Sequence record: DRR723986_4137
Direction: 5' to 3' (one strand)
Length of the DNA: 64,000 bases
This document shows, in pieces, positions 1,709 to 61,674 of this stretch (positions are counted from its first letter, which is position 1; each line of letters begins with the position of its first letter). The position numbers were made by a program, and so were the translations under genes. The notes beneath the pieces are model-generated. The model was not told the origin of the DNA. It ran no database searches and saw only the letters and a program-made list of their open reading frames with translations.

Positions 1709-4099
1709 TCAGTTGACCTCGGTTCCACGCCTCTGCTGGATATCCTTGCGTGACTGTGCAGTGTTCAGCGTTTTCTGTTTCTGGTCAGCGATCTCGCGTT
1801 GTTTTGCGGTGTACCCCCGTTCCCTCGCGAGCATGGCCTCCACACGGCGGATGATCTGCTCTGAGATCTGCCGAGCATCCCGTTCGACCACAATGTTCAA
1901 CTGAGTCCGGTTGACTATTTCAGCCTGAACTTGGACAGCCTGAGCCTGGATAGCCTGCTGTTGGAGAGCAGCTTGCTGGATTCGTTGCCGTTCGCCTGCC
2001 CCAAAGCTTCCGAAGAAACCTGCTCGCTGGGCGTCCATGATATCGGCTTGCCGCACGGCGCCGGTGGCGTTCTGGGTACCGACTTGTCGTAACAGTTCCC
2101 GTTGTTCTCGGTTCAATTCGCCAGCCCTACCAGATTGGGCCAATTTCTGGGCTCGCAGCGCTTCAGCCTGTTCGCGCTGGCTTAGGTTGGCGAACCGCAC
2201 CGCTGCATCGCCCAGCTGTTCTTGAGCCGTGCTGCGGATTTTCTGCTGCGTCGAAAGCTCTTGGTCTAGTTGGCCTAATCGCTTCTCACCTGCTTGTATG
2301 GCCGCCCGGTTCATGTCCATCCGGGCGTCTGATTCGGAGCGAAGGAGGTCGATCTGATGCCTTTGATTGTCAACTAGCTGCCCAGAGATTGTTTGAGCTC
2401 TCTGCAGGGCATCTACAAACAACTCCTCCGACTTTACCTTGCCAGCACTGAATCCGTCGATCGTTTGAGTAGTCATCGCCAATTCACGGAGCAAATCACG
2501 CTGCGACATGAGAGCGGAGTTCATTGCGCTGCCCGAACCGTTGTCGAGGCGGAGCCCCCTAACAGTCTCCCGGTCACCTCTCGCTTGATCTCGCATCGCA
2601 CGTGCGGACGTCAGGTCAATGAGCCGGATCTTCGCAAGCAGCTCCTCTTGGATCGCATCGGCGACGCTTGATTGTCTGAGCTTCTGCGCGTTTTCGACCG
2701 CAACATCCCCGATGTAATCAAACGCTCCCGTGATCGAACCTACCCACGACACGACGGCTACTTCGGCCTGCCCGATTGAGTCTGACCATCCGTCGACACT
2801 TGCTCCTCCACGCCACCCGTACTCGTTGATGTCCTTGCCGAATTCCAAAGCACTCTTTCCGGCGAATGCTAGACCGGCTACCGCTGCTGCCGCAGCACCG
2901 CCGACAGCCGCCAGACTGCCTCCTACGGTCGTACCCAGTGCTCCGGCTGTCTTGGTGGCGAGTCCTCCGGCTGCTCCAGCTCCTCGGGCCAGCAGGGCAT
3001 CAACGCCAAATCCACCTACGGTCTGTGCTGTCGCGCCAATGCTTCCGCCACCACCCAGAGCCCCGGTTATGGCGTCAGCACCTATGATACCGATCACGCT
3101 GGCTGCCCCAGCGCCAACGCTGCCGCCCCTTCTCCGCCCGACTCGATTGGCGATGGCCTGGGCTCTACCCGCCCGATCTGTTGACGTCGCCAGCTTGTCC
3201 TCTGCCCGGGCAGCCCGCTCAGCAGCTTGCGCGACGTAGCGAAGTGTATCGGCGTGTTTTTTATTGCCGTTGGTAGTTTGCTTGAGCTCTACTCCTTCGC
3301 GATCGAGGATAGCGACATACTGCCGCGAAAACTCCATCAAGGCCTTTTGTTGTTGGGCCTGCCCCGCCTGGGACTGCGCGAACAACTTTGTTCGGTCGCT
3401 CAGCAAGCTTAACACCTGAACGCCACCGGAAAGCGTCTTGAAGCCCCCCAACGCGACGTCCGCTCCGCCTTTAACCTTCAGCAAGAGATCAACCAATTCT
3501 CTGGCTGACTCTGAGTCCGCCCCAAGGAACGCGAGACCGCTTGCCAGCTGCGCGACGCCAGAAGCCGACTCCTCGGCTTTCGAAGCGATCTCCCGAAAGT
3601 TACCCGACAGTTGACTCTCCACCTGCTGACCGGATGCCGACAACCGCTCCATGATGTCGGCCTGCTTTTCCAGGGCTTCAGTTGCAGCATCGGTCGCATC
3701 CGGATCTGGGGCGGGGACGGTTGGCGTAGGTGCGGGCATTGTTCCGCCAGGATCGCCACCGTAGCGCTGTGTCTGAAGCCGATTGCGACGTTGGGAGAAG
3801 CCTACCCGTTGATCCATCACCTCTAACCAGTCACTGCTCCCGGGATCACCGCTGGCACTAGCGCCGCTACCCGAACGCTCGGGGCGCGCAGTTTGAAGAC
3901 GATTCAGCTGCCGCTCATAGCCGCCTGTCTGGCTGGGTATACCCTCCGCGATTCGATGGGCTTTATCGCCCACGCTATCAATCGATGCACCAATCTGGTG
4001 CATGGTGCCACGGACTTTGTCCGCTAGGCCTCGAAGCTTTTGCTCCGTCTGTGGATGGTCGGCCAGCCCGATCCGGAAGAGTACATCTCTGTCGTTCAT
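1709..4099 (-). CDS. Phage tail tape-measure-like protein (tentative)
   Basis: 796 aa, Ala/Gln/Arg-rich helical sequence with central Gly/Ala hydrophobic stretches (GAAGGLATKTAGALGTTVGGSLAAVGGAAAAAVAGLAFAG). RBS AAAGGAG. Lies in an integrase-bearing element. Confidence 0.55.
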   Translation of the reverse strand: MNDRDVLFRIGLADHPQTEQKLRGLADKVRGTMHQIGASIDSVGDKAHRIAEGIPSQTGGYERQLNRLQTARPERSGSGASASGDPGSSDWLEVMDQRVGFSQRRNRLQTQRYGGDPGGTMPAPTPTVPAPDPDATDAATEALEKQADIMERLSASGQQVESQLSGNFREIASKAEESASGVAQLASGLAFLGADSESARELVDLLLKVKGGADVALGGFKTLSGGVQVLSLLSDRTKLFAQSQAGQAQQQKALMEFSRQYVAILDREGVELKQTTNGNKKHADTLRYVAQAAERAARAEDKLATSTDRAGRAQAIANRVGRRRGGSVGAGAASVIGIIGADAITGALGGGGSIGATAQTVGGFGVDALLARGAGAAGGLATKTAGALGTTVGGSLAAVGGAAAAAVAGLAFAGKSALEFGKDINEYGWRGGASVDGWSDSIGQAEVAVVSWVGSITGAFDYIGDVAVENAQKLRQSSVADAIQEELLAKIRLIDLTSARAMRDQARGDRETVRGLRLDNGSGSAMNSALMSQRDLLRELAMTTQTIDGFSAGKVKSEELFVDALQRAQTISGQLVDNQRHQIDLLRSESDARMDMNRAAIQAGEKRLGQLDQELSTQQKIRSTAQEQLGDAAVRFANLSQREQAEALRAQKLAQSGRAGELNREQRELLRQVGTQNATGAVRQADIMDAQRAGFFGSFGAGERQRIQQAALQQQAIQAQAVQVQAEIVNRTQLNIVVERDARQISEQIIRRVEAMLARERGYTAKQREIADQKQKTLNTAQSRKDIQQRRGTEVN

Positions 4100-6606: not shown

Positions 6607-6846
6607 ATGGCATCAACGAGTCTATCTTTAGAACAACCAAACACACTCATTCTCCCGCGCAATTGGAACATCGTAGTCGCTGATATTGAGACGCGAGATT
6701 TCACGACGATGACCACCAATCTGTGTGGTTCAGACGCGGCTACCCTTTTTCGCCGCTTCAATCGCAGAGCCAAGCAGCGGCAAGCTGTCGCGCTCTTCTG
6801 GCCAAATTGGGCTCCACGCATCAGCATGAAGTTCGAGGCCGAATAG
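6607..6846 (+). CDS. Small hypothetical protein coupled to the integrase
   Basis: ATG at 6607 with upstream AAAAGGAA. 79 aa. Its TAG overlaps the integrase GTG (TAGTG). Confidence 0.5.
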   Translation: MASTSLSLEQPNTLILPRNWNIVVADIETRDFTTMTTNLCGSDAATLFRRFNRRAKQRQAVALFWPNWAPRISMKFEAE

Positions 6847-8243
6847 TGGCCTCCGTATTTAAGAAGACCTACACACAGCGCTTGCCACCGAACGCCAAAA
6901 TTGAAGGCGACAAGGTGCGTTGGAAAACTCGGGATGGTCGTTGGCGGATTGGTGAGCTGGTCGAAACAAGTTCGGGTCAACGTGTGCGGTTTAAGTCGCC
7001 GGTATGGCATTGCAAGTATCGAAATGCCGATGGTCGTGAGATCACGCAGTCAACCAAATGCCGTGACAAAGAAAACGCCAAGCAGAAGCTAGCTCAGCTT
7101 GTTGCGATGACTGAGCGAATCCTTGCGGGCGTTGTCTCAGCAGACGAAGCCGAGATTTCACAGCAACGATTCGCACCGATTGAATCGCAGGTGATCGAAT
7201 ACCTGAAGTACCTGCGAACGAAACCGGGGAAGGGGAAGCGGTCGTCTGTCACCACCAAGCATGTTGGTGAGTACGAACGGAGCTGCAAGCTCGTCATTGC
7301 TCAATGCAAGTTCAAAACACTAGCCGATGTCACTCGCGACCGAGTTCGTCTGTGGGTCAGTGACTGCGTTGAGGAACGTGCTGTTCGCAACTGGTCAAAT
7401 AGAACTATCAATGCCCATGTTGCCGCAATGTCCGCGTTCCTCAATTGGTGCGTTGAGACGAACCGGCTGGCTACCAATCCATTGATTCGGTTTCACAAAC
7501 TCGACGAGACTGCATCCAAGCATCCGCGACGAGCTCTAACCGAAGCTGAGCTAGAACGTCTACTGAAAGCTGCCCGCCTTCGGCCGGTCGCTGAGTACGG
7601 TCGTGAGGTTGAGAAACTGCCTAAGCCCGACGGCAAACGAACGGCGTGGACTCGGTTACCCCTCACGTTCGAGACCTTGGAAGAAGCCTTCGACGCCGGT
7701 TGTGGAGCGCTCCGAAGATCCCCTGCGAAGCTCAGAAGGCTGAAGAGACTCGGAGAAGAACGTTGTCTTATCTACCGAGTGTTGGTCACCACTGGCCTAC
7801 GTCGCGGGGAGTTGGAATCGATCAGAGTTCGAGACATCCACTTTTGCGCAAGCACTCTAACGTTGTCCGCGGAGAACGATAAGGCTGGTCGCGGCGCCAC
7901 GGTCGCACTCAGGTCTGACATCGCTGCCGAGCTCCGCGATTGGATCGAATCGAGGCAGCTGCCGCCTGAAGCTCCACCGCTCGTCGTACCTGACAAACTG
8001 ATTCGGATCCTGGACCGTGACCTTATCGCTGCGAACATTCCCAAAGTCGACGAACGCGGGCGGCGGATCGTCGTTCACTCGACCCGAAACACGCTGGCCA
8101 CGATGCTGAACAAAGCTGGCGTTGCACCCCGCGTAGTCCAAGAGGCAATGCGTCACAGCGACATACGTTTGACCATGCAGACCTACACCGACGCTGCCCA
8201 ACTGGACGTCGCTAAGGCTCTTGAAGGGCTACCAAAGTTCTAA
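6846..8243 (+). CDS. Tyrosine recombinase/integrase
   Basis: Likely GTG start at 6846 (MASVFKKTYT...). Catalytic motifs TGLRRGEL (R), HSTR (H-x-x-R) and MRHSDIRLTMQTY (H, Y). N-terminal arm-binding-like segment WHCKYRNADG...QSTKCRDKENA. Confidence 0.93.
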   Translation: MASVFKKTYTQRLPPNAKIEGDKVRWKTRDGRWRIGELVETSSGQRVRFKSPVWHCKYRNADGREITQSTKCRDKENAKQKLAQLVAMTERILAGVVSADEAEISQQRFAPIESQVIEYLKYLRTKPGKGKRSSVTTKHVGEYERSCKLVIAQCKFKTLADVTRDRVRLWVSDCVEERAVRNWSNRTINAHVAAMSAFLNWCVETNRLATNPLIRFHKLDETASKHPRRALTEAELERLLKAARLRPVAEYGREVEKLPKPDGKRTAWTRLPLTFETLEEAFDAGCGALRRSPAKLRRLKRLGEERCLIYRVLVTTGLRRGELESIRVRDIHFCASTLTLSAENDKAGRGATVALRSDIAAELRDWIESRQLPPEAPPLVVPDKLIRILDRDLIAANIPKVDERGRRIVVHSTRNTLATMLNKAGVAPRVVQEAMRHSDIRLTMQTYTDAAQLDVAKALEGLPKF

Positions 8244-50781: not shown

Positions 50782-51300
50782 ATGAAGAAATTTGTAATGG
50801 CATTGGCGGCACTATGCTGCTTTGCCGCCCCGAAAGCAGCGAACGCGGACTTCGTTCTTTCACTCGGTCCTCAGGTCGCGAACTTGAACTACAGTCCAGC
50901 TGGCACTTTCAGTGTCGATATCCTCGCAAGTAGGGTTGGCGAAGACCGCGGTTATAGCTTCGACAGTGTCACGGTCCCCGCGACGGACGGTGGAAATAGT
51001 GCCTTTATTGACACATTGAATGGTACGGTTGACATCAATTCATCGTTTGTCGTGACCTCGACTCCAACTGCAATTGGTACGTTCTCATTCGACGTTTCTT
51101 CTGGATTCGTTGGTATGATCAGCGAGACAACCACTTTCCAGATCGAAGCTACTCAGCTTCTACCAGCCGCTGGTGCGGGTGCCACGGCAACAGGTAGTTT
51201 CGCTGCTGCCGGAACTGTAAGTGCTGTTCCAGAGCCAGCTTCGGCTGCATTGCTCGGACTTGGCGCGTTCGGTTTGGTTCTACGTCGTCGACGTAGCTAA
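50782..51300 (+). CDS. PEP-CTERM sorting-signal protein, Ser/Thr-rich
   Basis: Signal peptide ending ANA-D. C-terminus AVPEPASAALLGLGAFGLVLRRRRS. RBS GGAG. Confidence 0.93.
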   Translation: MKKFVMALAALCCFAAPKAANADFVLSLGPQVANLNYSPAGTFSVDILASRVGEDRGYSFDSVTVPATDGGNSAFIDTLNGTVDINSSFVVTSTPTAIGTFSFDVSSGFVGMISETTTFQIEATQLLPAAGAGATATGSFAAAGTVSAVPEPASAALLGLGAFGLVLRRRRS

Positions 51301-51379: not shown

Positions 51380-53038
51380 ATGAATCGATCACAGAATTTC
51401 AACTTTTCGCTAACTGTAACGCTGCTTTGCTGTGTCGGTTGCCTGCCGTACGTGCTGGTTTATCTGGCTAATCTTTGGCAGCAGCCCCACTATCAGTTCT
51501 TTCCCGTGCTGCTCGTTGCCGTTGGGTGGATGTTTTGGCAGCGTTGTGGAGGAATCCTTAACGCAGGTTGGGCTTGGAAGCTCTTTTGTAGCGTCGTCTT
51601 GCTAGGCGGAGCATTTGGCGTGCTATGTGCGACCGTGTTCGCTTCCCCGTGGATGGGCTACTTTGGTTTTGCCGCGTCCGCAACTGCGGGATTGGCGATG
51701 CTAATGGATCGAGGAACGGGACGAAGTCTTGCCTACCTTGGCTTGCCACTGTTTCTAATTTGGCAGCCGCCTTACAACACCATCATCACCGCTGACACCG
51801 TCTTGATCCAACAGCTACAGGTCGTCAGCGCCAAACTGTCTTCGCGATGGCTCGATGCCCTGGGCTATCTCCATTTCCAGCCCGGCACGGTTCTGGAATT
51901 CGCCGGCAAGAGCTTTGGCGTCGCTGAAGCTTGCAGTGGTATTCAGTCATTTTTTGCCGTGGTTTGCTTCGCTGCCCTGCTCTGTGCTTACTTCCGCCGA
52001 GGTCCGGTGCACACGCTTCTGCTGATGGCGACCAGCCCCCTCTGGGCATTGCTGATGAACACAATTCGCATCACGGCGATTCCGATTGCCTACTCAGCCC
52101 TGGGCGTCGACTTGTCTCATGGTCTCATCCATGACCTGCTCGGCTTCGGGACGATGGGTCTAGCGATCGTCTTGCTCATCAGCGCTGATGAACTGCTGCT
52201 AAAGATGGCCGAATTGTTTGAGCCGTGGTTAGGAAGTTTTGCAGTCAAGCATTCGCCTGGCACACAATCGGAATCAAGTGGCACTAGTTTCTCCTGGGCT
52301 GCGGTAGGTGGCTTACCAAGACCACAATTGCTGCTGCTTGCGATACTTGCCTTGCCCTTTATTGGCATGTTTGGCTTGCAGGCCAACGATGCCTACACCT
52401 CGTGGGGCATGCAAAAGAAAACAATCGATTTCTTCCGAGATGAGCCGCTGATTGAGATGTCCGTTCGTGATGCTCCTGAGTCGTTGATGGGATGGAAGCG
52501 GGTCAATTATATCCGTGAGAATCGCGCCCGGGACAACGACGACCTGGGGCAGCAGAGTGATCTTTGGTATTACCAAAACGCCAACGGACGGACGACCGTT
52601 TCATTTGACCAGATGTTTCCAGGATGGCACGAGCTCACACGGTGCTACCGTTCGGCTGGTTGGAAGCTTGAGCGGCGGGGTGTACTCTCAAGTGACGTCG
52701 CTGGCGAATGGCCAATCGTCGAGGCTTACTTTTCCCGCAGCGGTGAGTACGGTTACTTAATTTGGTCGCTGAAGACTCGCGATGGAAAACCGGTTCAGCC
52801 GCCTGGCGAATGGAACCCTTGGACGTCACTCAAGGAACGATTGCAGAATCGCCTAACACCTGCAGTACGAGGAGCCCTATTCGGCTTAGCTGCGTACCAG
52901 ATTCAAATGTTTGTTAGCGATTCGACACCGATGGATGAACGTGGCCGAACTGAGTGCATTGAGCGATTCTTGTCGGTGCGGCCGGAATTGTGGGGGCACG
53001 CAGAACGACGACTCATTGAAATGGGGCTCGCAGAGTGA
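51380..53038 (+). CDS. xrtU: Exosortase (exosortase U type) with C-terminal EpsI-like domain; intact triad
   Basis: VAEACSG (Cys185), NTIRI (Arg230), LIHD (His251). C-terminal GWHELTRCY..AGW. Adjacent PEP-CTERM gene. Confidence 0.9.
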   Translation: MNRSQNFNFSLTVTLLCCVGCLPYVLVYLANLWQQPHYQFFPVLLVAVGWMFWQRCGGILNAGWAWKLFCSVVLLGGAFGVLCATVFASPWMGYFGFAASATAGLAMLMDRGTGRSLAYLGLPLFLIWQPPYNTIITADTVLIQQLQVVSAKLSSRWLDALGYLHFQPGTVLEFAGKSFGVAEACSGIQSFFAVVCFAALLCAYFRRGPVHTLLLMATSPLWALLMNTIRITAIPIAYSALGVDLSHGLIHDLLGFGTMGLAIVLLISADELLLKMAELFEPWLGSFAVKHSPGTQSESSGTSFSWAAVGGLPRPQLLLLAILALPFIGMFGLQANDAYTSWGMQKKTIDFFRDEPLIEMSVRDAPESLMGWKRVNYIRENRARDNDDLGQQSDLWYYQNANGRTTVSFDQMFPGWHELTRCYRSAGWKLERRGVLSSDVAGEWPIVEAYFSRSGEYGYLIWSLKTRDGKPVQPPGEWNPWTSLKERLQNRLTPAVRGALFGLAAYQIQMFVSDSTPMDERGRTECIERFLSVRPELWGHAERRLIEMGLAE

Positions 53039-54585
53039 GTACGCGGGAAACTGTTTGGGGAAGCCCACCGAATTGGCGAAGTGGGATCCCTGCAATTGCT
53101 TTTGCTGGCATCGCGGGCCTCTTGAGCCTCTATGCTGTGTGGTCTGTGCCTAGAAAAGTGCCCGTTGTCTATGGCAGCGCACTCGAAGAACAGTTGCAGG
53201 CATATGGGCAAGCGGATCGTTCTGATCGCGAGTCGATTGAGAAGATTGCGGGCACGATCAACGTTGCATTCAGTCGTCTTACTTCGACTACCGCGGACAA
53301 CGAAGACTTGCTTTGGCGTTGGGCGGAGTTTAGTCGAGAACATGCTGACAATCTCCGCAGCATTGCATCCAGTGGTGAGGTTTCCGATGAATCATTGGAA
53401 CAGCTAGAAGCAACGATTGCGCGGTACTCGTCCAGAGCCAGCGACAACCTGGAGTTCTTGGCCGCAGGTGAATCGAAATACAGCTCTGAAGCAGCGGTGA
53501 TTGTTACTTACAGAAAGGTTTCGGACGTGCTAGCTGCCGGCCTTGTGCCGCCTCTCGGATACGCCGATGCATTAACGGAACATGGCGATACCGGCGGGGA
53601 TACGTCTGGTCGAGCGTCGGCGATTGTAAGCTATGTATTGCTTGAAAATTTCCAGCCGGAGTCGACCTTAGACGTGTCTGGAGAACAGGCTCCTGCGGCT
53701 GAACAAGTTCGTGCACAATTAGATACTGCTTCCCAGGATCTACCACTCGCGGCGGCGGCAAATTTGGTGTTGAGTGCTTGGGAGAGTCAGGATGCTTCTG
53801 CAGCGAGCAACGATGATTCATCGGAGGAGTCCGAGCTCAGCAGCCAGAACTATTTGTCCGCCGACGCCGCCTGGGAAGAGGCCGTATCGAATGCACTGGT
53901 TTACATCCACGACGGCGACTGGAACTCGTTGTCATTCTTGCTATCACGGCTTGAGGAGCCCAACGTTGCGATTGTGCGACATGTCGCCGCTCGCTGGATC
54001 TCCCGCTTGGCTGAGTCGAAGCTACCCGGGCGATCGGAGCAGTGGTTGGATCGTCTTCCGGACGGATTGCAATTGGCCGGTCAGATAGCCCCGGAGAGTC
54101 CACACTTCGCAACTCTGATGTGGCGAATTGGTACGACCGCATCTGAAGATGAATTTCCGGCAGCGGTTGACCAACTATTGTTAGAGACGGTCGTTGGTGG
54201 CAGATCTCCGGTGATTCAGCACGTAGCCTTGGCGATCAGCAATTGTGCTGATGGAAATCTGCCGACCGCCCGGTCGCACGTGCAGTTGGTCCAGCGCGCA
54301 ACTTCCTCGGTGGATCTATTCGTTTCGATTGTGCTGGGGCAAATGCGTTCCGGAGCACAAGAACCAGAATTACGGGTGATGCTCAAACTTTGCGAAATTC
54401 TAGTCGATGTTGAGCCTCGTCCCGGCATACCGCTCTACGCGCAAGCGATGGTCGCGTACGAACTGGGCGACCTTCAACTAGCTGCCGAATCGATGGCGGA
54501 GGCCAGTGAAGCGCTTCCGAAAAATGATAATTTGCTGCAGTTGGCTAAGCAATTTAGCAATGAACTTGAAGCCCGCGGCGAATAG
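53035..54585 (+). CDS. Membrane-anchored TPR-like helical protein
   Basis: N-terminal TM (GIPAIAFAGIAGLLSLYAVW), helical repeats and a C-terminal TPR-like motif. GTGA overlap with the exosortase stop. Confidence 0.72.
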   Translation: MSTRETVWGSPPNWRSGIPAIAFAGIAGLLSLYAVWSVPRKVPVVYGSALEEQLQAYGQADRSDRESIEKIAGTINVAFSRLTSTTADNEDLLWRWAEFSREHADNLRSIASSGEVSDESLEQLEATIARYSSRASDNLEFLAAGESKYSSEAAVIVTYRKVSDVLAAGLVPPLGYADALTEHGDTGGDTSGRASAIVSYVLLENFQPESTLDVSGEQAPAAEQVRAQLDTASQDLPLAAAANLVLSAWESQDASAASNDDSSEESELSSQNYLSADAAWEEAVSNALVYIHDGDWNSLSFLLSRLEEPNVAIVRHVAARWISRLAESKLPGRSEQWLDRLPDGLQLAGQIAPESPHFATLMWRIGTTASEDEFPAAVDQLLLETVVGGRSPVIQHVALAISNCADGNLPTARSHVQLVQRATSSVDLFVSIVLGQMRSGAQEPELRVMLKLCEILVDVEPRPGIPLYAQAMVAYELGDLQLAAESMAEASEALPKNDNLLQLAKQFSNELEARGE

Positions 54586-54779: not shown

Positions 54780-56471
54780 ATGAACGACACCGTCAAAAAT
54801 GAGCACTCCGAGGCCAGTGCTGGCGACACTTTGCCTAAATCTGCGAAGCTTCTCGCAGATATTGGCTTAGGCGTTCTGTGGCTCGCCTCACTGCCATTGC
54901 TATATCTATTTCTCGCAGATATCTGGGGGCGAACCGATGTTTCGCTCTTAGTCTTTTTGCCATTGGTCAGCATGCCGTTCATAGTGCCGTTGTGCAAGCT
55001 AGGCGGCGCGGTTTCCTTCCAACGGACCTGTTGGGCGACTGGTGGGCTGTTGCTGGCAGGAGTTCTGGCGTTAGTTGGTGCCTTTATTCTGTCACCGTGG
55101 GTTGCGCTTCTGGCTGTTGTTATTGGGAGCGCAAGTTGGGCTTTGTTGCGGATGGCATCTTTCGCATGGCATCGCCCATGCCGAGCGCTCGTTCCGCTTG
55201 CGGTTTTGCTGGTCCTGCCGATTGCAGATGCAGCCGATTGGACGGAAACTCTTGAGGTTCAGGTTGCAGGTGCTTCGGGTACTCTGTTGGATCTTCTTAG
55301 CGTGCCGCACTTGGTCGATTACAGCGAAATTCGCCTGAGATTTGATGCTCCGCTTGATTCATCTCTTGCTTGTCGAAATATCGCCAGCCCCTACGTGTTA
55401 TTCTGCGTATCGGCGCTTCTGCTGATGGTCGCTTCTAGGAGTCTTTCTAGCGCACTGCTTGCTCTTGCTACCGTGCCGCTTTGGAGCTGGCTGTTGTCGA
55501 CGATGCATTTGACAGCCGCTGCTTGGCTTTGGGAGCAAAAAGACACGGTCATTTTCGCTGGACCAACTCGGAACTTGATTTCTCAGTTCTGCTTTCTGAT
55601 CCTTGGGCTTGGATGTGTCTTCTTAACCCGCGTTGTGATATCGAATCTCTTAGCACCACTCGCGAACATTTCATCGGACGCAAGTTGGACGCACGCCCTT
55701 TTCAATCGTTTGGCGATGTGGCCCAACCTTGACGCGGAAATGCTCGAGGAAGTTCGTACCAAAGACCGAGAAGACGACAGACAATCACGCGTCTTCGATT
55801 CTCGGTTTTATCTTGCCATCACCGCTGTGTGTATTCTTGCGTTTGCCGCGTCGGGGATCATCGGAATACAACGAGCGTCAGCGTCTGAGGCTAGGTTTTC
55901 GAGATTGGGATTGGTCGAGCGTCAGGACAGTCTGCCATCGCTCAAAGTTCCGGAACAAATAGGTGAACTACGCCGAATCGGTAGCATGACCGCTAGAGCA
56001 AGCGAGAGCGAGTTTGCGGATCAACTGGTCGTAGGATGGACTTATGCGAATTCTCGGCGACGCGTGCTGATTGAACTGCGCACGCCACAACGGGGGGCGG
56101 TGAATCTGGAGAAGCGATACCTGAACCAGGTGCGGCGCGAGAGTGAGCCGCGGAGCACTATTTTACAGTATCGTGATTCATTGGGAGCATTTCTGGTCAG
56201 TGATGTAATGCTGCTTGATGAACTGTATGGACGATCCTACCTTTGCTACGTGAATTTGACCGCCAGCGGGGAGGCCCCTGTTCAGACGATTGCGTTTGGG
56301 CAGCGGCTTAGTCTTCGCAGTCTGAAGCATTCCCTGACACTTCAGCCAACTGCTTATACGTTGTCCTTTTTCGTCGAGGGAACCGAGCGGCTGAGTGAAG
56401 AAGAACGCGTGGAGTACCACGAGATTTTGCTACAATTTGCGGAATCGCTTGCAACGCAGTTGCAGCAGTAA
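54780..56471 (+). CDS. Exosortase-family paralogue with Cys-His-Arg (swapped) triad positions
   Basis: Gapless match to the 51380 protein around LAC...ATVPLW...STMHLTA...GPTR (Cys198, His243, Arg264). Same TM plus periplasmic-domain layout. Confidence 0.8.
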   Translation: MNDTVKNEHSEASAGDTLPKSAKLLADIGLGVLWLASLPLLYLFLADIWGRTDVSLLVFLPLVSMPFIVPLCKLGGAVSFQRTCWATGGLLLAGVLALVGAFILSPWVALLAVVIGSASWALLRMASFAWHRPCRALVPLAVLLVLPIADAADWTETLEVQVAGASGTLLDLLSVPHLVDYSEIRLRFDAPLDSSLACRNIASPYVLFCVSALLLMVASRSLSSALLALATVPLWSWLLSTMHLTAAAWLWEQKDTVIFAGPTRNLISQFCFLILGLGCVFLTRVVISNLLAPLANISSDASWTHALFNRLAMWPNLDAEMLEEVRTKDREDDRQSRVFDSRFYLAITAVCILAFAASGIIGIQRASASEARFSRLGLVERQDSLPSLKVPEQIGELRRIGSMTARASESEFADQLVVGWTYANSRRRVLIELRTPQRGAVNLEKRYLNQVRRESEPRSTILQYRDSLGAFLVSDVMLLDELYGRSYLCYVNLTASGEAPVQTIAFGQRLSLRSLKHSLTLQPTAYTLSFFVEGTERLSEEERVEYHEILLQFAESLATQLQQ

Positions 56472-56557: not shown

Positions 56558-58060
56558 ATGTTTCGCGAAGAGTTAATCGAATTCATTCTCGCGTTCGTGA
56601 AGAGCCGAAGTTGGTGGAGACTGATTCTACAAGGAGGCTTGTTGGTTATCCTACCTTTGGTCGCGGGTGGCTTCGTGCTCTACGGAGCTTCGATACCGGT
56701 CAACAGGATCGGTGAGCGTTACATGACGGAGGTTAGTAACGAAGTTGACCAGCGGTTCGCCGCGCTTGAGTCTGGCAAAGAAGGCTCGGTTGACGAAATG
56801 GATTCGAAACTCCGCATTTCCCTGGAGCGTATTTTACAACTAGGTGAATCTAACGAGCGTGTTTCCTACATGGTGGCAATGCAGTTGGCTTTGCAGGGAC
56901 GCGTGGAGACAGCCGCGAAAAAGATGCGAGATATCGCTCCTGCAAACGGGGCTGGTTTCGCCCCTGCCCATGCATGGTTATCAAGCTACGAGGCCGAGCG
57001 GTTTGACAACACGAAGGAAATGGCGGAAGTAGTGCTGAATGATCTGACGATTGCTAACAACGCCCTGTCGACCATGCCCGAAAATCTAACCAACCTACAA
57101 GCCAGATTGTTGGTATCCCTTGGACGCCGAACAGAAGCGTTGGACATCTTGAGTTTTCGGGCTGAACAAAAGCCTCAACTGTATTCGAGCTTGGCTGATC
57201 TAGCGGTTCAAATGAAAGATCGGGCGACGCTGCGGGAGGCGGTGCAGAAGACTCGCGAGTTTTTGAAGGTCCGCTACGCTGATCGGGAGCTTGACGAGGC
57301 TTTCTATATTCAGAACTCAAAGCTAGAGGATTATGAAAACGACCTTGATGGCGTGTTGATGTATACGAAGCAGGGATTGCAAAAATTTCCTGAATCAGGC
57401 TTGTTGCGACGCTATCTTTCCAATGCTTTGCTTGTGAAATTCAATCGAGTTCAGAGCAACTTAGACGACGGTGAGCCAGGGCGAGATTACCTTCAAGAGG
57501 CTTACGACTCAGATCCAGCGAACCCTGCAATTATGGTGCAGATTGCGAAAGCGATCGCTCAAGGAGAAGATACTGGCGACGAATTGCGGGAGGCTCTTGA
57601 GCAACGGCTGGAGGATGGCACTGCATCAGGTGTAACGTATCTGATCCTAGGCAACAGCAGCCTAGGAAACGGCGATATGGTTCAGGGGATCGACTACTTA
57701 GAAAACGCGTTGGAAGCGTTTCCGGATGCACCGCTTGTTCTGAACAACTTAGCTTACGCCATGCTACAGCTTGACCCGCCCAAAATTGATGAGTCACTGA
57801 AGGCGGTGGAAAAGGCCCTTGCTTTCAAGGAGATTCCGCCCGCCTTTAAAGCGTCAATCAAGGATACTCAAGGCGAAGCGCTTGCCCTGAAGGGCGATGC
57901 ATTGGGGGCGATTGAATGCTATGAAGCAGCGATTGGGATCGACCCCGGCAAAATTTCGTCTCGCGAAAAGCTTGTCCCGCTCTACAAGGCCATCGGTATG
58001 GAAAAGATGGCAACCGTTCAGCAAGAACGAATCAATGAACTCAAACAGCAGCAACCGTAG
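56558..58060 (+). CDS. Membrane-anchored TPR protein
   Basis: N-terminal TM. TPR motifs TYLILG...YLENALEAFPD, VLNNLAY and DTQG...AIECYEAAIGIDP. Confidence 0.88.
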   Translation: MFREELIEFILAFVKSRSWWRLILQGGLLVILPLVAGGFVLYGASIPVNRIGERYMTEVSNEVDQRFAALESGKEGSVDEMDSKLRISLERILQLGESNERVSYMVAMQLALQGRVETAAKKMRDIAPANGAGFAPAHAWLSSYEAERFDNTKEMAEVVLNDLTIANNALSTMPENLTNLQARLLVSLGRRTEALDILSFRAEQKPQLYSSLADLAVQMKDRATLREAVQKTREFLKVRYADRELDEAFYIQNSKLEDYENDLDGVLMYTKQGLQKFPESGLLRRYLSNALLVKFNRVQSNLDDGEPGRDYLQEAYDSDPANPAIMVQIAKAIAQGEDTGDELREALEQRLEDGTASGVTYLILGNSSLGNGDMVQGIDYLENALEAFPDAPLVLNNLAYAMLQLDPPKIDESLKAVEKALAFKEIPPAFKASIKDTQGEALALKGDALGAIECYEAAIGIDPGKISSREKLVPLYKAIGMEKMATVQQERINELKQQQP

Positions 58061-58065
58061 CTGCT

Positions 58066-59700
58066 TTATTCTGTAAGCAGCCCGCTACGGATCTCAGTGA
58101 ACTGGTTTCGGTATTCTGCCAGTTCACTGCTGGTTAGTTGGGCAGATGGTTCGGCGATCAGTTGAAGGCAGTGCGTTACGGCGGTGACGCTCGTGTTGCC
58201 TTCTAAGCTGGAACGATCAAACTCAAGACGTTCTGGAGCCCCATTGAATGCGACGCCAGCGTCTGTTGAAAGGCTGTAGATTACATATCGCCAGTCGCCT
58301 AGCTCGTTGGCAAGCTCGCACTCTACCGTGACCCAACCTTCGGTCGTGTAGCCCTTCTCTTTCTCGACACTCCAGCCGCGCTGTTTCCACTGGGTTGTCG
58401 GATCGTTCCAGCCGAGATACGGCAGAGAAAGTAACACTGCGAACTGCTTTTGACGATTTGCATACCGGCGCAGAATGGAATACTGACCGCGGCTGCTAAT
58501 GATTTGCGGCTTCGCTTCTTCCAGGACCAACTGCCAGCCTGATGAAGTTTGTTTCGGAAGGTTAAGTGAGTCTGCAATCTGTGCCGCGTCTTGCTCAGTA
58601 TAGGAAGGCAGGCTGAACCGGAGATCAGACGAGCCCCCACCTAGCAATTTGCTGGCGGGAAGAATCATCAACAAGACCGCTGCAATGCCGAGGATCTTGG
58701 GTAGGAGGCTGGAAAGCAGTGCGCTCTCTGTTGCTGCTGTATGGTCCGCCTCCTCCTGAGCTGCGACCGCTTCTGGCTCGTCAACTGCACCAGGCCATGC
58801 GAAAAAGCGATTGAGGTTCGTGAAGAATCCGCCAAACTTCGAGTCAGCGGTTGGGATCGGTGCAAACAGATTGCCAAGGAATCGTATTGATAAAGCGATC
58901 AATGCCGCCAATAAGAGGAAGGTTCCCACATGGAGCAGCAGGTAGTCTTTGCCATTGCTAAGGTCGCGACCATACCAGAGGGGCGCGAGGATAATTGCGG
59001 TCATTCGAAGCAGATTACCTACCCAAGCCCACATTGGAACAAGTGCGAGGGCCAATAGTGAAACGAGCAATCCACTTCGCCGAAACGCGCAGATACCGAG
59101 TGTTAGGGACGCCAATCCAAAGATGCTTCCCCAAGTTGCCGCCACACTGCTACTAACAACAAGCGTGTTTTCCACCTCGATGGACGCACCATGTTGGATC
59201 AGGGTTACCTGAAGAGCGTCTAGGATACTGGCTGTACCAGATGCGGCTGTGGCGTAGACCCAATTGAGCACCGTTTGATCTAGATCGCGAGGCAGTGGAA
59301 TCGTTGACGCCAAGAAAGCGGTCCAGCCAACCGTGGTTCCCCAATGAAGCGTTCGGAAGCGGCCGGTCGCCCAACCTCCGATGAACAGGACAAACGCAAC
59401 TTGCCCTAGCCACGCAGAGTCCCGTAAGGCTCCGGCGGCCAGCGCGGCTGTGCCCGCAAGTAGAAGCGCAGCGGCGACCAAGAAGCGTTTTTCGGAGTGC
59501 TTTCCTGCCGGCCGTCTGGCACCTACAAACAGCAATGCGATGAAAGCGACGAATGTTACGGGCACGAAAGCCATGTGAGGCTTTGTTCCCAGGACGGCAA
59601 TCTGCTGAATAAGAAGCGGTAAACATGCTACCGCCGGTAAAATTCCTGCAAACAGATCCCACTGCGTAAAGCCGCGGCTGGTTGTTTTGGGCGTATTCAT
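58066..59700 (-). CDS. Exosortase-family paralogue lacking the catalytic Cys (Ala-Arg-Tyr)
   Basis: KPHMAFVP, ILDAL and ALVPMWAWVGNLLRMTAI...GRDLSNG align to the 51380 protein (Ala187, Arg232, Tyr253). Confidence 0.8.
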   Translation of the reverse strand: MNTPKTTSRGFTQWDLFAGILPAVACLPLLIQQIAVLGTKPHMAFVPVTFVAFIALLFVGARRPAGKHSEKRFLVAAALLLAGTAALAAGALRDSAWLGQVAFVLFIGGWATGRFRTLHWGTTVGWTAFLASTIPLPRDLDQTVLNWVYATAASGTASILDALQVTLIQHGASIEVENTLVVSSSVAATWGSIFGLASLTLGICAFRRSGLLVSLLALALVPMWAWVGNLLRMTAIILAPLWYGRDLSNGKDYLLLHVGTFLLLAALIALSIRFLGNLFAPIPTADSKFGGFFTNLNRFFAWPGAVDEPEAVAAQEEADHTAATESALLSSLLPKILGIAAVLLMILPASKLLGGGSSDLRFSLPSYTEQDAAQIADSLNLPKQTSSGWQLVLEEAKPQIISSRGQYSILRRYANRQKQFAVLLSLPYLGWNDPTTQWKQRGWSVEKEKGYTTEGWVTVECELANELGDWRYVIYSLSTDAGVAFNGAPERLEFDRSSLEGNTSVTAVTHCLQLIAEPSAQLTSSELAEYRNQFTEIRSGLLTE

Positions 59701-59914: not shown

Positions 59915-60943
59915 TTAGCGACGGTTCACAGGCGGGAAATGACTTGGTGCGAGCGAAGCGTCGCTAGGAGTGACACCAAATTCGTGGCTACCGGCCTGAT
60001 TGCGGAATGGATAGTCGAGGCCAGACTCGCCAGCTAGGTCTTGCCAATGCACGCCGCTTTCAAAATCGAATGCATCAAGGTCGATAAAAGCGATACGACC
60101 GTCACGATACAGAACATTGAAACCGCGCCCTTCGTGAGCAACAAACTGTTCCTCAACGCTTCGCAGTACAATTGGGGCGTCGGCAAGAACGGGCATGTGA
60201 GCGCCGCCAATCAGTCTTGGAGCAACTACTCGACCCGATTCGTTGATCCCCAGTGAGTAGGCGTAATTGCCTGCTGCCACTCGACGGAAATACTGCAACG
60301 ATTCGTCTGACAAGTCAGAAACATTAGCAGCTCTCAGGCTGCCGAACGGATTTCTTGACTGGTCATCGTCGATTCCAATTCGGCTACTACACTGCAAATT
60401 AGCGGTTCGAAGCGGCATACCTGCATCAGCAAGTTGCACGGTAAAGTAGCCCGCAAATGCGCCAGTTCCGGAAGTTGGAATCTGTGGGAATCGCCCCTCG
60501 GGGTTCACCGTTGCGTAATTAATCAGTGATTGACCTGTCGTCCGAAGGTTATTCGCACATTGCAGCTTGCGAGCTGAGTAGCGAGCGCGGACGACGGCAG
60601 GCAAAATCAAGCAGCAAAGGGCCGCGAGGCTGAGACTTAGCGCTGGCGAATCCCAGAACGACCCCCGTGATCGAGAGTTGCTTGCAGGTGATAGGTGAAC
60701 TGGCGGTTCCGCTGGATGCGGCGCCACCGCATCGTCTATCCGTGCCAGGGTCGAATCGACCAGGTCCGCAGGAGCTTCAAATACCGGGTGGGGACCTTCC
60801 AGGGCACCGAGCATTTCACGCAGATGCTCGATACGTTCGCGAATGGACGAGTCGCCCTGGGCTGCGGATTCGATTCGCTCGGACAACTCGGCCGTTGAGT
60901 CACCGAGGACGTAGAGAACAAGTTCTTCTTCGGAAAACTGCAT
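59915..60943 (-). CDS. Putative anti-sigma factor fused to a DUF1559-like domain
   Basis: N-terminal EEELVLYVLG...ERIE...PADLVDSTLARI, then a TM segment, LILPAVVRAR.SARKLQCANNL and C-terminal HEGRGFNVLYRDG. Directly downstream of an ECF gene. Confidence 0.75.
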   Translation of the reverse strand: MQFSEEELVLYVLGDSTAELSERIESAAQGDSSIRERIEHLREMLGALEGPHPVFEAPADLVDSTLARIDDAVAPHPAEPPVHLSPASNSRSRGSFWDSPALSLSLAALCCLILPAVVRARYSARKLQCANNLRTTGQSLINYATVNPEGRFPQIPTSGTGAFAGYFTVQLADAGMPLRTANLQCSSRIGIDDDQSRNPFGSLRAANVSDLSDESLQYFRRVAAGNYAYSLGINESGRVVAPRLIGGAHMPVLADAPIVLRSVEEQFVAHEGRGFNVLYRDGRIAFIDLDAFDFESGVHWQDLAGESGLDYPFRNQAGSHEFGVTPSDASLAPSHFPPVNRR

Positions 60944-61029
60944 ACCGGCAAGTGCCCAGTTGCGCTAAACAGTGAGGCCAGAACAACGGCGGTTCAACTG
61001 GTCACAATTCCACAGAGGGGAACCGACAA

Positions 61030-61674
61030 TCAACCACTCGACTTCTCTTCATTACGCTGCCAGATGGCCGAAAGTTTGCGAATTGCTGAGTGAACGCGGC
61101 TCTTTACTGTTCCAACAGGGACGTCCAACGCGGTTGCGGCGTCTTTGTAGGACAAGCCTTGCAGGTAAATGAGCTCAATGGCACTCTTGCCTGGCTCTCC
61201 AACCTGATCGACGGCCGCAAGCATTCGCTCGCGGAATTCGGCTTCGACTAAAAGGTCGCCGTCGGGTGCGCGATGATCTGGAATTGATGCTGCTGCCGAG
61301 GCACTGCGGCTTTCGCCCTCGTCATTGGACCAATCTAGGCTCTGATGATTTTGACGTTTGCAACGTCGTTGCAGGTCAATGGCTTGGTTGGTGGCCACGC
61401 CGTAAAGCCACGGGCGAAACCTTCGCTGCAGATCGAACTGCGAGCCCTTTTGATAGACTCGTAAGAAAGTCAGTTGAAAAGCATCTTCGGCGTGTTCGTC
61501 GTTGCCCAAGTAACGCCGCAGGTAGTTATACAGCTCGTGTCGGTACCGCCGGAGAAGGATTTCAAAACTACCTCGGTCCCCGTTTTCAACGAACGCTCGC
61601 AAAAGCTCTTCGTCGGTACGCAACTCGATCGAGTCTTGATCACAAGGCTTCTGAGAAGTTTGTAGCTGCGACAT
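61030..61674 (-). CDS. ECF sigma-70 factor
   Basis: TDEELL, AEDAFQ.TFL, FRPWLY..ATNQAID and GLSYKDAA..LDVPVGTVKSRVH motifs. Confidence 0.93.
   Translation of the reverse strand: MSQLQTSQKPCDQDSIELRTDEELLRAFVENGDRGSFEILLRRYRHELYNYLRRYLGNDEHAEDAFQLTFLRVYQKGSQFDLQRRFRPWLYGVATNQAIDLQRRCKRQNHQSLDWSNDEGESRSASAAASIPDHRAPDGDLLVEAEFRERMLAAVDQVGEPGKSAIELIYLQGLSYKDAATALDVPVGTVKSRVHSAIRKLSAIWQRNEEKSSG

Follow-up and report, generated by a model that had tools for sequence, protein, structure and literature searches.

A clade of exosortase U paralogues with remodelled catalytic motifs and a possible accessory role in PEP-CTERM sorting in Pirellulaceae

The Cys-Arg-His mechanism proposed for exosortases rests on sequence invariance. 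Six invariant residues of EpsH, organized in the motifs C-x-G, N-x-x-R and H-x-x-x-G, were described by Haft in 2006, and in the passages of that report that deal with them it was proposed that Cys, Arg and His act like the triad of sortases (PMC1569441). According to a passage of a 2018 review, exosortases were at that date without any experimental analysis (PMC6098224). In ArtA of Haloferax volcanii, the residues Cys173, Arg214 and Arg253 are experimentally critical, as stated in a passage of a paper that cites Abdul Halim 2018 for this result (PMC9263693). Here we describe a diverged paralogue of exosortase U (XrtU), encoded at positions 54780-56471 of a stretch of 64,000 nt from record DRR723986_4137, numbered along one strand and called the window in its full length. 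Three exosortase-U-like genes were found inside 8.5 kb of the window, and they are referred to as W1, W2 and W3, W2 being the subject of this work:

51380-53038, + strand: W1, canonical XrtU with C185/R230/H251 (NF033780 1.1e-38; PF09721 2.8e-28)
54780-56471, + strand: W2, diverged XrtU paralogue of 563 amino acids with an intact open reading frame
58066-59700, - strand: W3, third XrtU paralogue, with Cys changed to Ala, His changed to Tyr and Arg kept (BLASTP to XrtU 1e-17)

W2 belongs to a real and conserved variant clade of this known enzyme family, which is unannotated and is covered by no curated Pfam or NCBIfam model. With a probability that we estimate at about 50%, W2 is an accessory and probably non-catalytic XrtU paralogue, which works with the canonical XrtU and with the flanking tetratricopeptide repeat (TPR) proteins in PEP-CTERM sorting. 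The accessory role is proposed because the three residues of the presumed active site are not invariant in the clade, a canonical copy is invariably present and the gene module is conserved. In addition, since the triad is non-invariant, the Cys was lost at least three times and the highest conservation lies elsewhere in the protein, the function common to the clade would be independent of Cys-Arg-His transpeptidation. The preliminary description of this gene, made from the sequence alone, had instead seen in it an exact exchange of the catalytic Arg and His and a still active enzyme, and it had added that no account of such a variant was known. In fact, none was found among the listed papers that were searched for XrtU or exosortase, and no passage on catalytic residues was found in a 2025 paper on cyanoexosortase B.

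Judged by sequence comparison, W2 is homologous to XrtU over its membrane domain as well as its C-terminal domain, beyond what chance would produce. The curated profiles scored it below their thresholds, with an expectation value (E) of 0.14 and 11.9 bits for PF09721, under the gathering score of 25.7, and with 14.8 bits and E 0.019 for NF033780, under the 40-bit cut-off set for the XrtU C-terminal domain; W1 reached 132.7 bits with the latter profile. BLASTP of W2 against the XrtU of the window gave E 3e-5, and canonical XrtU was also retrieved by a phmmer search. Moreover, the profile-profile comparison (hhalign) of the W2 clade with 38 canonical XrtU sequences reached a probability of 100 and E 5e-86 over 554 columns, and the homologous polytopic membrane domain recovered in this way places W2 in the Exosortase/EpsH superfamily (PF09721, TIGR02602). 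The protein is composed of an exosortase-type membrane domain (residues ~20-290), a cytoplasmic linker, an extra transmembrane helix (341-373) and a C-terminal alpha/beta domain (376-562). Its AlphaFold2 model was confident over the full length, with a predicted local distance difference test score (pLDDT) of 90.9 and a predicted template modelling score (pTM) of 0.91, the corresponding values of W1 being 82.3 and 0.79.

To gather relatives of W2, 1.84 billion representatives were scanned in full with HMMER, with 141 hits, and trees were built with FastTree on 121 rows of at least 440 amino acids and with IQ-TREE on 54 selected rows. Both trees recovered the W2 clade, with 19 full-length representatives, at a support of 100; its stem is 0.61 long, and the canonical XrtU clades among which it nests do not include the one of the neighbouring W1. 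These 19 are representatives of clusters at 50% identity that were found by similarity to W2, and the counts given for them are not a census. In the canonical XrtU, the C, S, G, R, H and G of the motifs were invariant in 38/38 sequences, the complete C-S-G being present in all 38, and these invariants match the six of EpsH described in passages of PMC1569441. The combination C/R/H was read in 66 of the 134 rows that have residues at all three columns. The composition of the equivalent columns in the W2 clade was as follows:

C198, the Cys column: Cys in 15/19, otherwise L, V, F and L
R199, the residue after the Cys (codons 55371-55376 for the pair): Arg in 16/19, Ser in canonical XrtU
H243, the column of the canonical Arg: H in 11/19, L in 4/19, Q in 2/19 and Y in 2/19, never R
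R264, the position before the canonical His: Arg in 17/19
Q269, the Gly column of H-x-x-x-G: Q in 17/19, Gly in 0/19

Each of the three motifs is altered in W2. The C-x-G motif is represented by C198-R-N, with the Cys kept and the Gly lost, the consensus of the clade being C-R-G; the Asn column of N-x-x-R holds no N in any of the 19 members, W2 reading S-T-M-H; and the His column of H-x-x-x-G holds His in a single one of the 19 (P0014), W2 reading N265...Q269 by the profile alignment. The minimum number of changes on the tree was at least three for the Cys state and at least five at the H243 column, and one of the Cys losses (P0007) stands beside a Cys-bearing sister (P0004). Since the His persists in three of the four Cys-less members, it does not track the nucleophile. 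The clade has 16 invariant columns (D27, D47, R51, W107, W120, P139, P147, D171, Y205, W235, S298, H305, P315, W420, R438 and G439), from which C198, H243 and R264 are absent; a conservation equal to or higher than that of these three residues was counted in 71, 187 and 45 of the 563 columns, respectively, and 45 columns are conserved in at least 17 of the 19 members. These columns do not support a conserved Cys-His-Arg triad in permuted order: all three columns are invariant in the 38 canonical XrtU and none of them is in the W2 clade. Because the orthologues vary at the position 45 residues after the Cys, where the His of W2 lies, the inference of a permuted but active triad, drawn from the exactness of the exchange, is not upheld.

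The exactness itself depends on the alignment. The six codons on which it was based were read as claimed, both in XrtU (TGC 51932 for C185, CGC 52067 for R230 and CAT 52130 for H251) and in W2 (TGT 55371 for C198, CAT 55506 for H243 and CGG 55569 for R264), and the alignment of the two proteins from the Cys over 67 residues is gap-free with 20 identities, among them the shared residues that had been pointed out. In this ungapped pairwise view the exchange is reciprocal, H243 standing on R230 and R264 on H251, but it does not hold in profile and multiple alignments. These comprised a MAFFT alignment of W1-W3 with the 141 relatives, a second alignment of 144 rows and the hhalign comparison of the clade with the 38 canonical XrtU. 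BLAST opens a 3-residue gap directly after the motif in the W2/XrtU pair, and both MAFFT alignments as well as hhalign have instead a one-residue insertion (P262), which is present only in W2 and its 64-66% identical orthologue. With this insertion, I250, which immediately precedes the His, is paired with R264, H251 with N265, and G255 of H-x-x-x-G with Q269. The other Arg-bearing members of the clade align gap-free and anchored on both sides, with G-x-R-x-x-x-x-Q against the canonical G-x-x-H-x-x-x-G, and the Arg coincides with the canonical His only in the two carriers of the insertion. BLAST, MAFFT and hhalign all set the H243 column against R230.

The models were compared at these positions by DSSP. 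Both H243 and R230 precede the end of the equivalent helix by 11 residues, H243 being in the middle of its helix (232-254), and R264 and H251 are each the fourth residue of the next helix, which begins at a conserved Gly. As modelled, R264 is thus placed at, or one residue from, the site of the His at the periplasmic start of the helix. An Arg before the His was also found in canonical XrtU that retain the His, namely P0063, P0114 and one reading frame of locus L044 (L044_7568). Because of this, the Arg of the W2 clade would be a neighbouring residue that became fixed, rather than a replacement of His by Arg. The striking swap is largely a lineage-specific coincidence of alignment.

W2 is a real gene under purifying selection. 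Its orthologue in a Pirellulaceae metagenome-assembled genome (locus L001) is 64-66% identical, and this pair gave a proportion of nonsynonymous differences (pN) of 0.239 and a proportion of synonymous differences (pS) of 0.787, the latter saturated; the pN values of the other two genes against their L001 orthologues were 0.119 for XrtU and 0.222 for W3. Only pN and pS are reported, and not dN/dS, because the synonymous sites were saturated (pS of at least 0.75). Full length was kept in orthologues down to about 25% identity, and the 16 invariant columns hold across sequences that are ~25-64% identical to W2.

The gene is part of a module in which further components of a PEP-CTERM system were identified:

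50782-51300, + strand: PEP-CTERM protein, likely a substrate of XrtU (PF07589 1.9e-6; TIGR02595 28.7 bits, cut-off 16)
53035-54585, + strand: membrane-anchored protein of 516 amino acids with one N-terminal hydrophobic helix, a GTG start and a 4-base overlap of this start with the XrtU stop
56558-58060, + strand: TPR protein, distantly PrsT-like, directly 3' of W2 (TPR Pfam matches; TIGR02917 PrsT 1.4e-14, under the cut-off)
59915-61674, - strand: anti-sigma-like protein and extracytoplasmic function (ECF) sigma factor, adjoining the module, with homologues in L001 and L060
19127-50494: exopolysaccharide (EPS) biosynthesis and export locus of ~30 kb, which runs straight into the PEP-CTERM and XrtU genes

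After the EPS locus, the order is PEP-CTERM protein, XrtU, the 53035-54585 protein, W2, the PrsT-like TPR protein, W3 on the opposite strand, anti-sigma and sigma. W2 thus shows the genomic association with a PEP-CTERM protein and an EPS locus that is seen for XrtU systems. The EPS locus encodes two UDP-sugar dehydrogenases, a Poly_export protein, a Wzc-like P-loop ATPase, two Wzy-like proteins and a flippase, together with GT4 enzymes, aminotransferases, acetyltransferases, AMP-binding enzymes and a priming sugar transferase. The 53035-54585 protein gave zero Pfam or NCBIfam matches, and its features in the ESM Atlas were TPR-like, which is to be taken as a lead only. W3 scored 25.3 bits with PF09721, slightly below the cut-off of 25.7; its triad A/R/Y is the same in the L001 orthologue, which is 67% identical, and among relatives of the W3 clade the Cys column varies (C, M, Y) and the His is absent.

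The module recurs, whole or in part, at other loci. Locus L001 has XrtU, the 53035-54585 homologue, W2, TPR, W3, anti-sigma and sigma in the same order as the window; L060 has XrtU, the 53035-54585 homologue, the W2-type gene, anti-sigma and sigma; L061 has the 53035-54585 homologue, the W2-type gene and TPR; and in L048 the order is W3-type gene, TPR, 53035-54585 homologue, short W2-type gene and XrtU. The 53035-54585 homologue accordingly stands beside the W2-type gene in 4/4 loci with readable flanks, immediately 5' of it in L001, L060 and L061 and 3' of it in L048, and the TPR protein at 56558-58060 is conserved in L001, L048 and L061 as well as next to other XrtU-family paralogues. Moreover, a canonical XrtU was found within ~5 kb in all four W2-type loci with enough flanking sequence (the window, L001, L048 and L060). 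The anti-sigma and ECF sigma genes were found next to the module in L001 and L060, and the conservation of this pair suggests a dedicated regulation of the exosortase locus, of the envelope-stress type.

In the samples of genomes searched, a match was obtained in 5/301 genomes of a phylum-wide sample and in 190/401 genomes of a family sample, nearly all of the latter being canonical XrtU; among the best 20 loci of the family sample, one (L048) carried a W2-type gene (A1 scoring above A2). A search with an 8-row alignment of the clade recovered 3 loci among genome contigs, and among metagenome contigs it gave 92 pattern matches, none of which was confirmed.

Besides the W2 clade, XrtU-family paralogues of Pirellulaceae showed a wide assortment of triads, such as L/R/L, L/R/G, C/R/Y, C/L/H, C/M/H, G/R/F, C/R/Y preceded by 'CR', and others, and even one W2-type copy (G343, L048) reads C/Y/L. 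Since assorted triads are frequent among XrtU paralogues, C/H/R is one pattern among many. Non-canonical paralogues were observed in loci L045, L047, L050, L052, L054, L055, L057, L058, L070, L073 and L080. A homologue of the TPR protein of the window adjoins an XrtU-family gene in 6 of the 16 loci examined, and five of those six genes are degenerate. All seven checked genomes that hold a degenerate paralogue (G001, G343, G475, G641, G648, G680 and G701) also have at least one copy with canonical motifs, the one of G475 being truncated ahead of the Cys, where the contig ends. In L040 and L044, two fully canonical XrtU genes (C-S-G, R and H-x-x-x-G) lie a few kb apart, one of them W1-like and the other from the lineage that appears to have given rise to the W2 clade; therefore, a locus with two XrtU genes may be the ancestral state.

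Compared with the described systems, W2 is closest to XrtU (NF033780 with PF09721), with which it shares the domain order, the secondary structure and the PEP-CTERM/EPS neighbourhood. It differs from XrtU by the change of 5 of the 6 canonical invariants (G, N, R, H and G), by failing both curated cut-offs and by residues conserved specifically in its clade (D47, R51, D53, S298, H305 and R199). ArtA belongs, like W2, to a homologous family of polytopic Cys enzymes and, in the passage quoted above, accepts a second Arg rather than a His; however, ArtA keeps the first Arg, which is lost in W2, and its residues are spaced +41/+80 from the Cys against +45/+66. The Cys-His-Arg arrangement of sortase A is paralleled by one C, one H and one R near the same membrane face in W2, but sortase A is not homologous to exosortases, and the orthologues of W2 conserve neither the order nor the positions that these residues have in W2.

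Inactive rhomboids illustrate that paralogues of active enzymes may be catalytically dead. Similarly, the trypanosomatid prozymes of AdoMetDC and DHS are dead paralogues that partner an active enzyme (PMC5201418, PMC3663545). W2 resembles such pseudoenzymes in its changed catalytic residues, the Arg and His columns being those at which residues essential in active relatives were lost, in being under purifying selection and in being encoded together with an intact copy; its own inactivity and partnership are putative. In the mechanism proposed here, the W2 clade arose when a gene of a canonical XrtU lineage, other than the XrtU next to it, was duplicated, and after fast divergence along the long stem it has been retained by purifying selection. 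The architecture of XrtU was kept whole, with the exosortase membrane domain, the extra transmembrane helix and a periplasmic C-terminal domain, and the motifs were remodelled from C-S-G to C-R-G (C-R-N in W2), from N-x-x-R to x-x-x-H (L, Q or Y elsewhere) and from G-x-x-H-x-x-x-G to G-x-R-x-x-x-x-Q. Having lost canonical catalysis, W2 would be non-catalytic or at best weakly catalytic and would hold the substrate, the acceptor or the TPR proteins encoded on either side of it, in physical cooperation with the canonical XrtU of the same operon-like cluster, which would perform the cleavage.

Several observations weigh against an accessory and non-catalytic W2. The Cys is kept in 11 of the 12 members of the sub-clade of W2 and, where present in the clade, is always followed by the clade-specific Arg; 11/19 members retain a polar His halfway along a membrane helix; and identity to the L001 orthologue is 78% in the motif region of W2 (residues 190-275), as compared with 64% for the whole protein. 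These features are explained by a retained, altered active site no less well than by a dead one. Furthermore, only four loci give usable context, and to our knowledge no XrtU has been studied by experiment. W2, like the other Cys-bearing members, might be an active variant exosortase, in which Cys198 would be the nucleophile, His243 the general base or acid, and R264 or R199 would stabilize the transition state, with another sorting signal or acceptor; we regard this as possible, if clearly less probable than the accessory role. The complete C-R...H...R set is found in W2 and nine other members of the clade (P0001-P0005, P0009, P0011, P0027 and L012), and the positions of H243 and R264 relative to the helix ends, equal to those of R230 and H251 in the two models, as well as the conservation of the motif region, agree with it. 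ArtA, as reported in the passage cited, functions with Arg at two positions, the 14 and 19 PEP-CTERM matches encoded by genomes G001 and G343 would be enough substrates for more than one sortase, and the pairs of canonical XrtU in L040 and L044 are a precedent for a second active one. However, the nucleophile is replaced in 4 members, three of which still have the His, the H243 column holds L, Q or Y in 8/19, the Asn of N-x-x-R and the Gly of H-x-x-x-G are missing in 19/19, and the Arg lies, at the level of the clade, outside the His column. A stronger version, in which the W2 clade is a functional exosortase with a centre rebuilt from Cys198 and the recruited Arg199, His243 and Arg264, and acts in a complex with XrtU, the Cys-less paralogue and the TPR proteins, appears to us unlikely. 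If true, the rebuilt centre would be the first case of migration of catalytic residues in the exosortase/archaeosortase superfamily, and planctomycetes would gain a second sorting enzyme with its own class of substrates or its own acceptor.

A function outside PEP-CTERM sorting, in which XrtU-like and TPR proteins form a membrane module that exports or assembles polysaccharide or signals to the adjacent ECF sigma/anti-sigma pair, the exosortase fold serving only as a scaffold, is in our view improbable. It would agree with the position of the module at the end of the ~30 kb EPS locus, with the conserved sigma and anti-sigma genes alongside, with the recurrent pairing of XrtU-like and TPR proteins whose triads are degenerate, and with the likeness of the C-terminal domain to PsbP/Mog1-type binding domains, but this fold match is only middling, and a link to sorting is simpler because neither a canonical XrtU nor a PEP-CTERM gene is ever far away. 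It would be far less probable still that W2 is a pseudogenized XrtU duplicate in which H and R appeared by random drift. Arbitrary residues do occupy these columns in many XrtU paralogues, the residue before the His varies freely in canonical XrtU, Arg included, and both the C/Y/L copy and short forms exist. Nevertheless, the judgement of the preliminary description that the gene is not a product of decay is supported by the intact frame of 563 codons, the pN of 0.24 against a saturated pS and the confident AlphaFold2 fold, to which the full-length orthologues and the 16 invariant columns are added; in addition, the His is nearly specific to the clade at its column, which fits a single event in an ancestor and not recurrent chance.

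Of more interest than the swap is the recurrent architecture of XrtU-family and TPR proteins, in which one member is canonical and several are remodelled. Conserved paralogues in which residues of the triad are missing or shifted have arisen repeatedly in the XrtU branch, and they stand, each with its TPR partner, beside a canonical copy. Such paralogues constitute a natural set of mutants, in which residues needed for catalysis can be told from those with other roles, and we hypothesize that PEP-CTERM sorting in planctomycetes may be performed by a machine of multiple paralogues and not by a single enzyme. Because these paralogues score under the Pfam and NCBIfam cut-offs, their annotation as hypothetical proteins is to be expected.

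In relation to the structure of these proteins, a search of the PDB with the XrtU sequence gave zero matches at E up to 1, the Foldseek search of the W2 model against the PDB gave nothing at E 0.001 or better, and in the VIA-align comparison of the same model the membrane domain had no convincing match. Since neither the sequence searches nor the fold searches of the PDB returned a relative of the membrane domain, no solved exosortase was available as a structural reference. The C-terminal domain of W2 (381-563) resembles PsbP/Mog1-type domains in a middling match to 2xb3_A (Z 8.9, root-mean-square deviation 3.4 over 126 residues), a further match by VIA-align being 1jhs_A (Z 8.5). More generally, the model gives the C-terminal domain of the XrtU family an alpha/beta fold with likeness to extracytoplasmic binding modules of the PsbP, Mog1, Tsi3, DcrB and LpqN types, and we know of no fold assignment made for it so far.

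Short W2-type proteins that have only the membrane domain were also observed, at L012:1513-2658 (- strand, 381 amino acids) and at L048:9834-10922 (- strand, 362 amino acids), and tblastn with full-length members of the clade detected no remnant of the C-terminal domain downstream of either gene. The representatives P0017, P0020, P0027, P0029, P0031 and P0032 are of similarly short length. In genome G701, which holds L060, a W3-type gene on another contig (G701:C26:161725-163230) was retrieved in three adjacent matches (L074, L078 and L082), one of them with an in-frame TAA, and this copy may be broken. At the other end of the window, two large open reading frames of 796 and 703 amino acids, which have no Pfam match, adjoin a gene of the phage integrase family (6723-8243), and the GC content of positions 2001-4000 is 0.60, against ~0.53; the segment 1709-8243 may be an integrated element.

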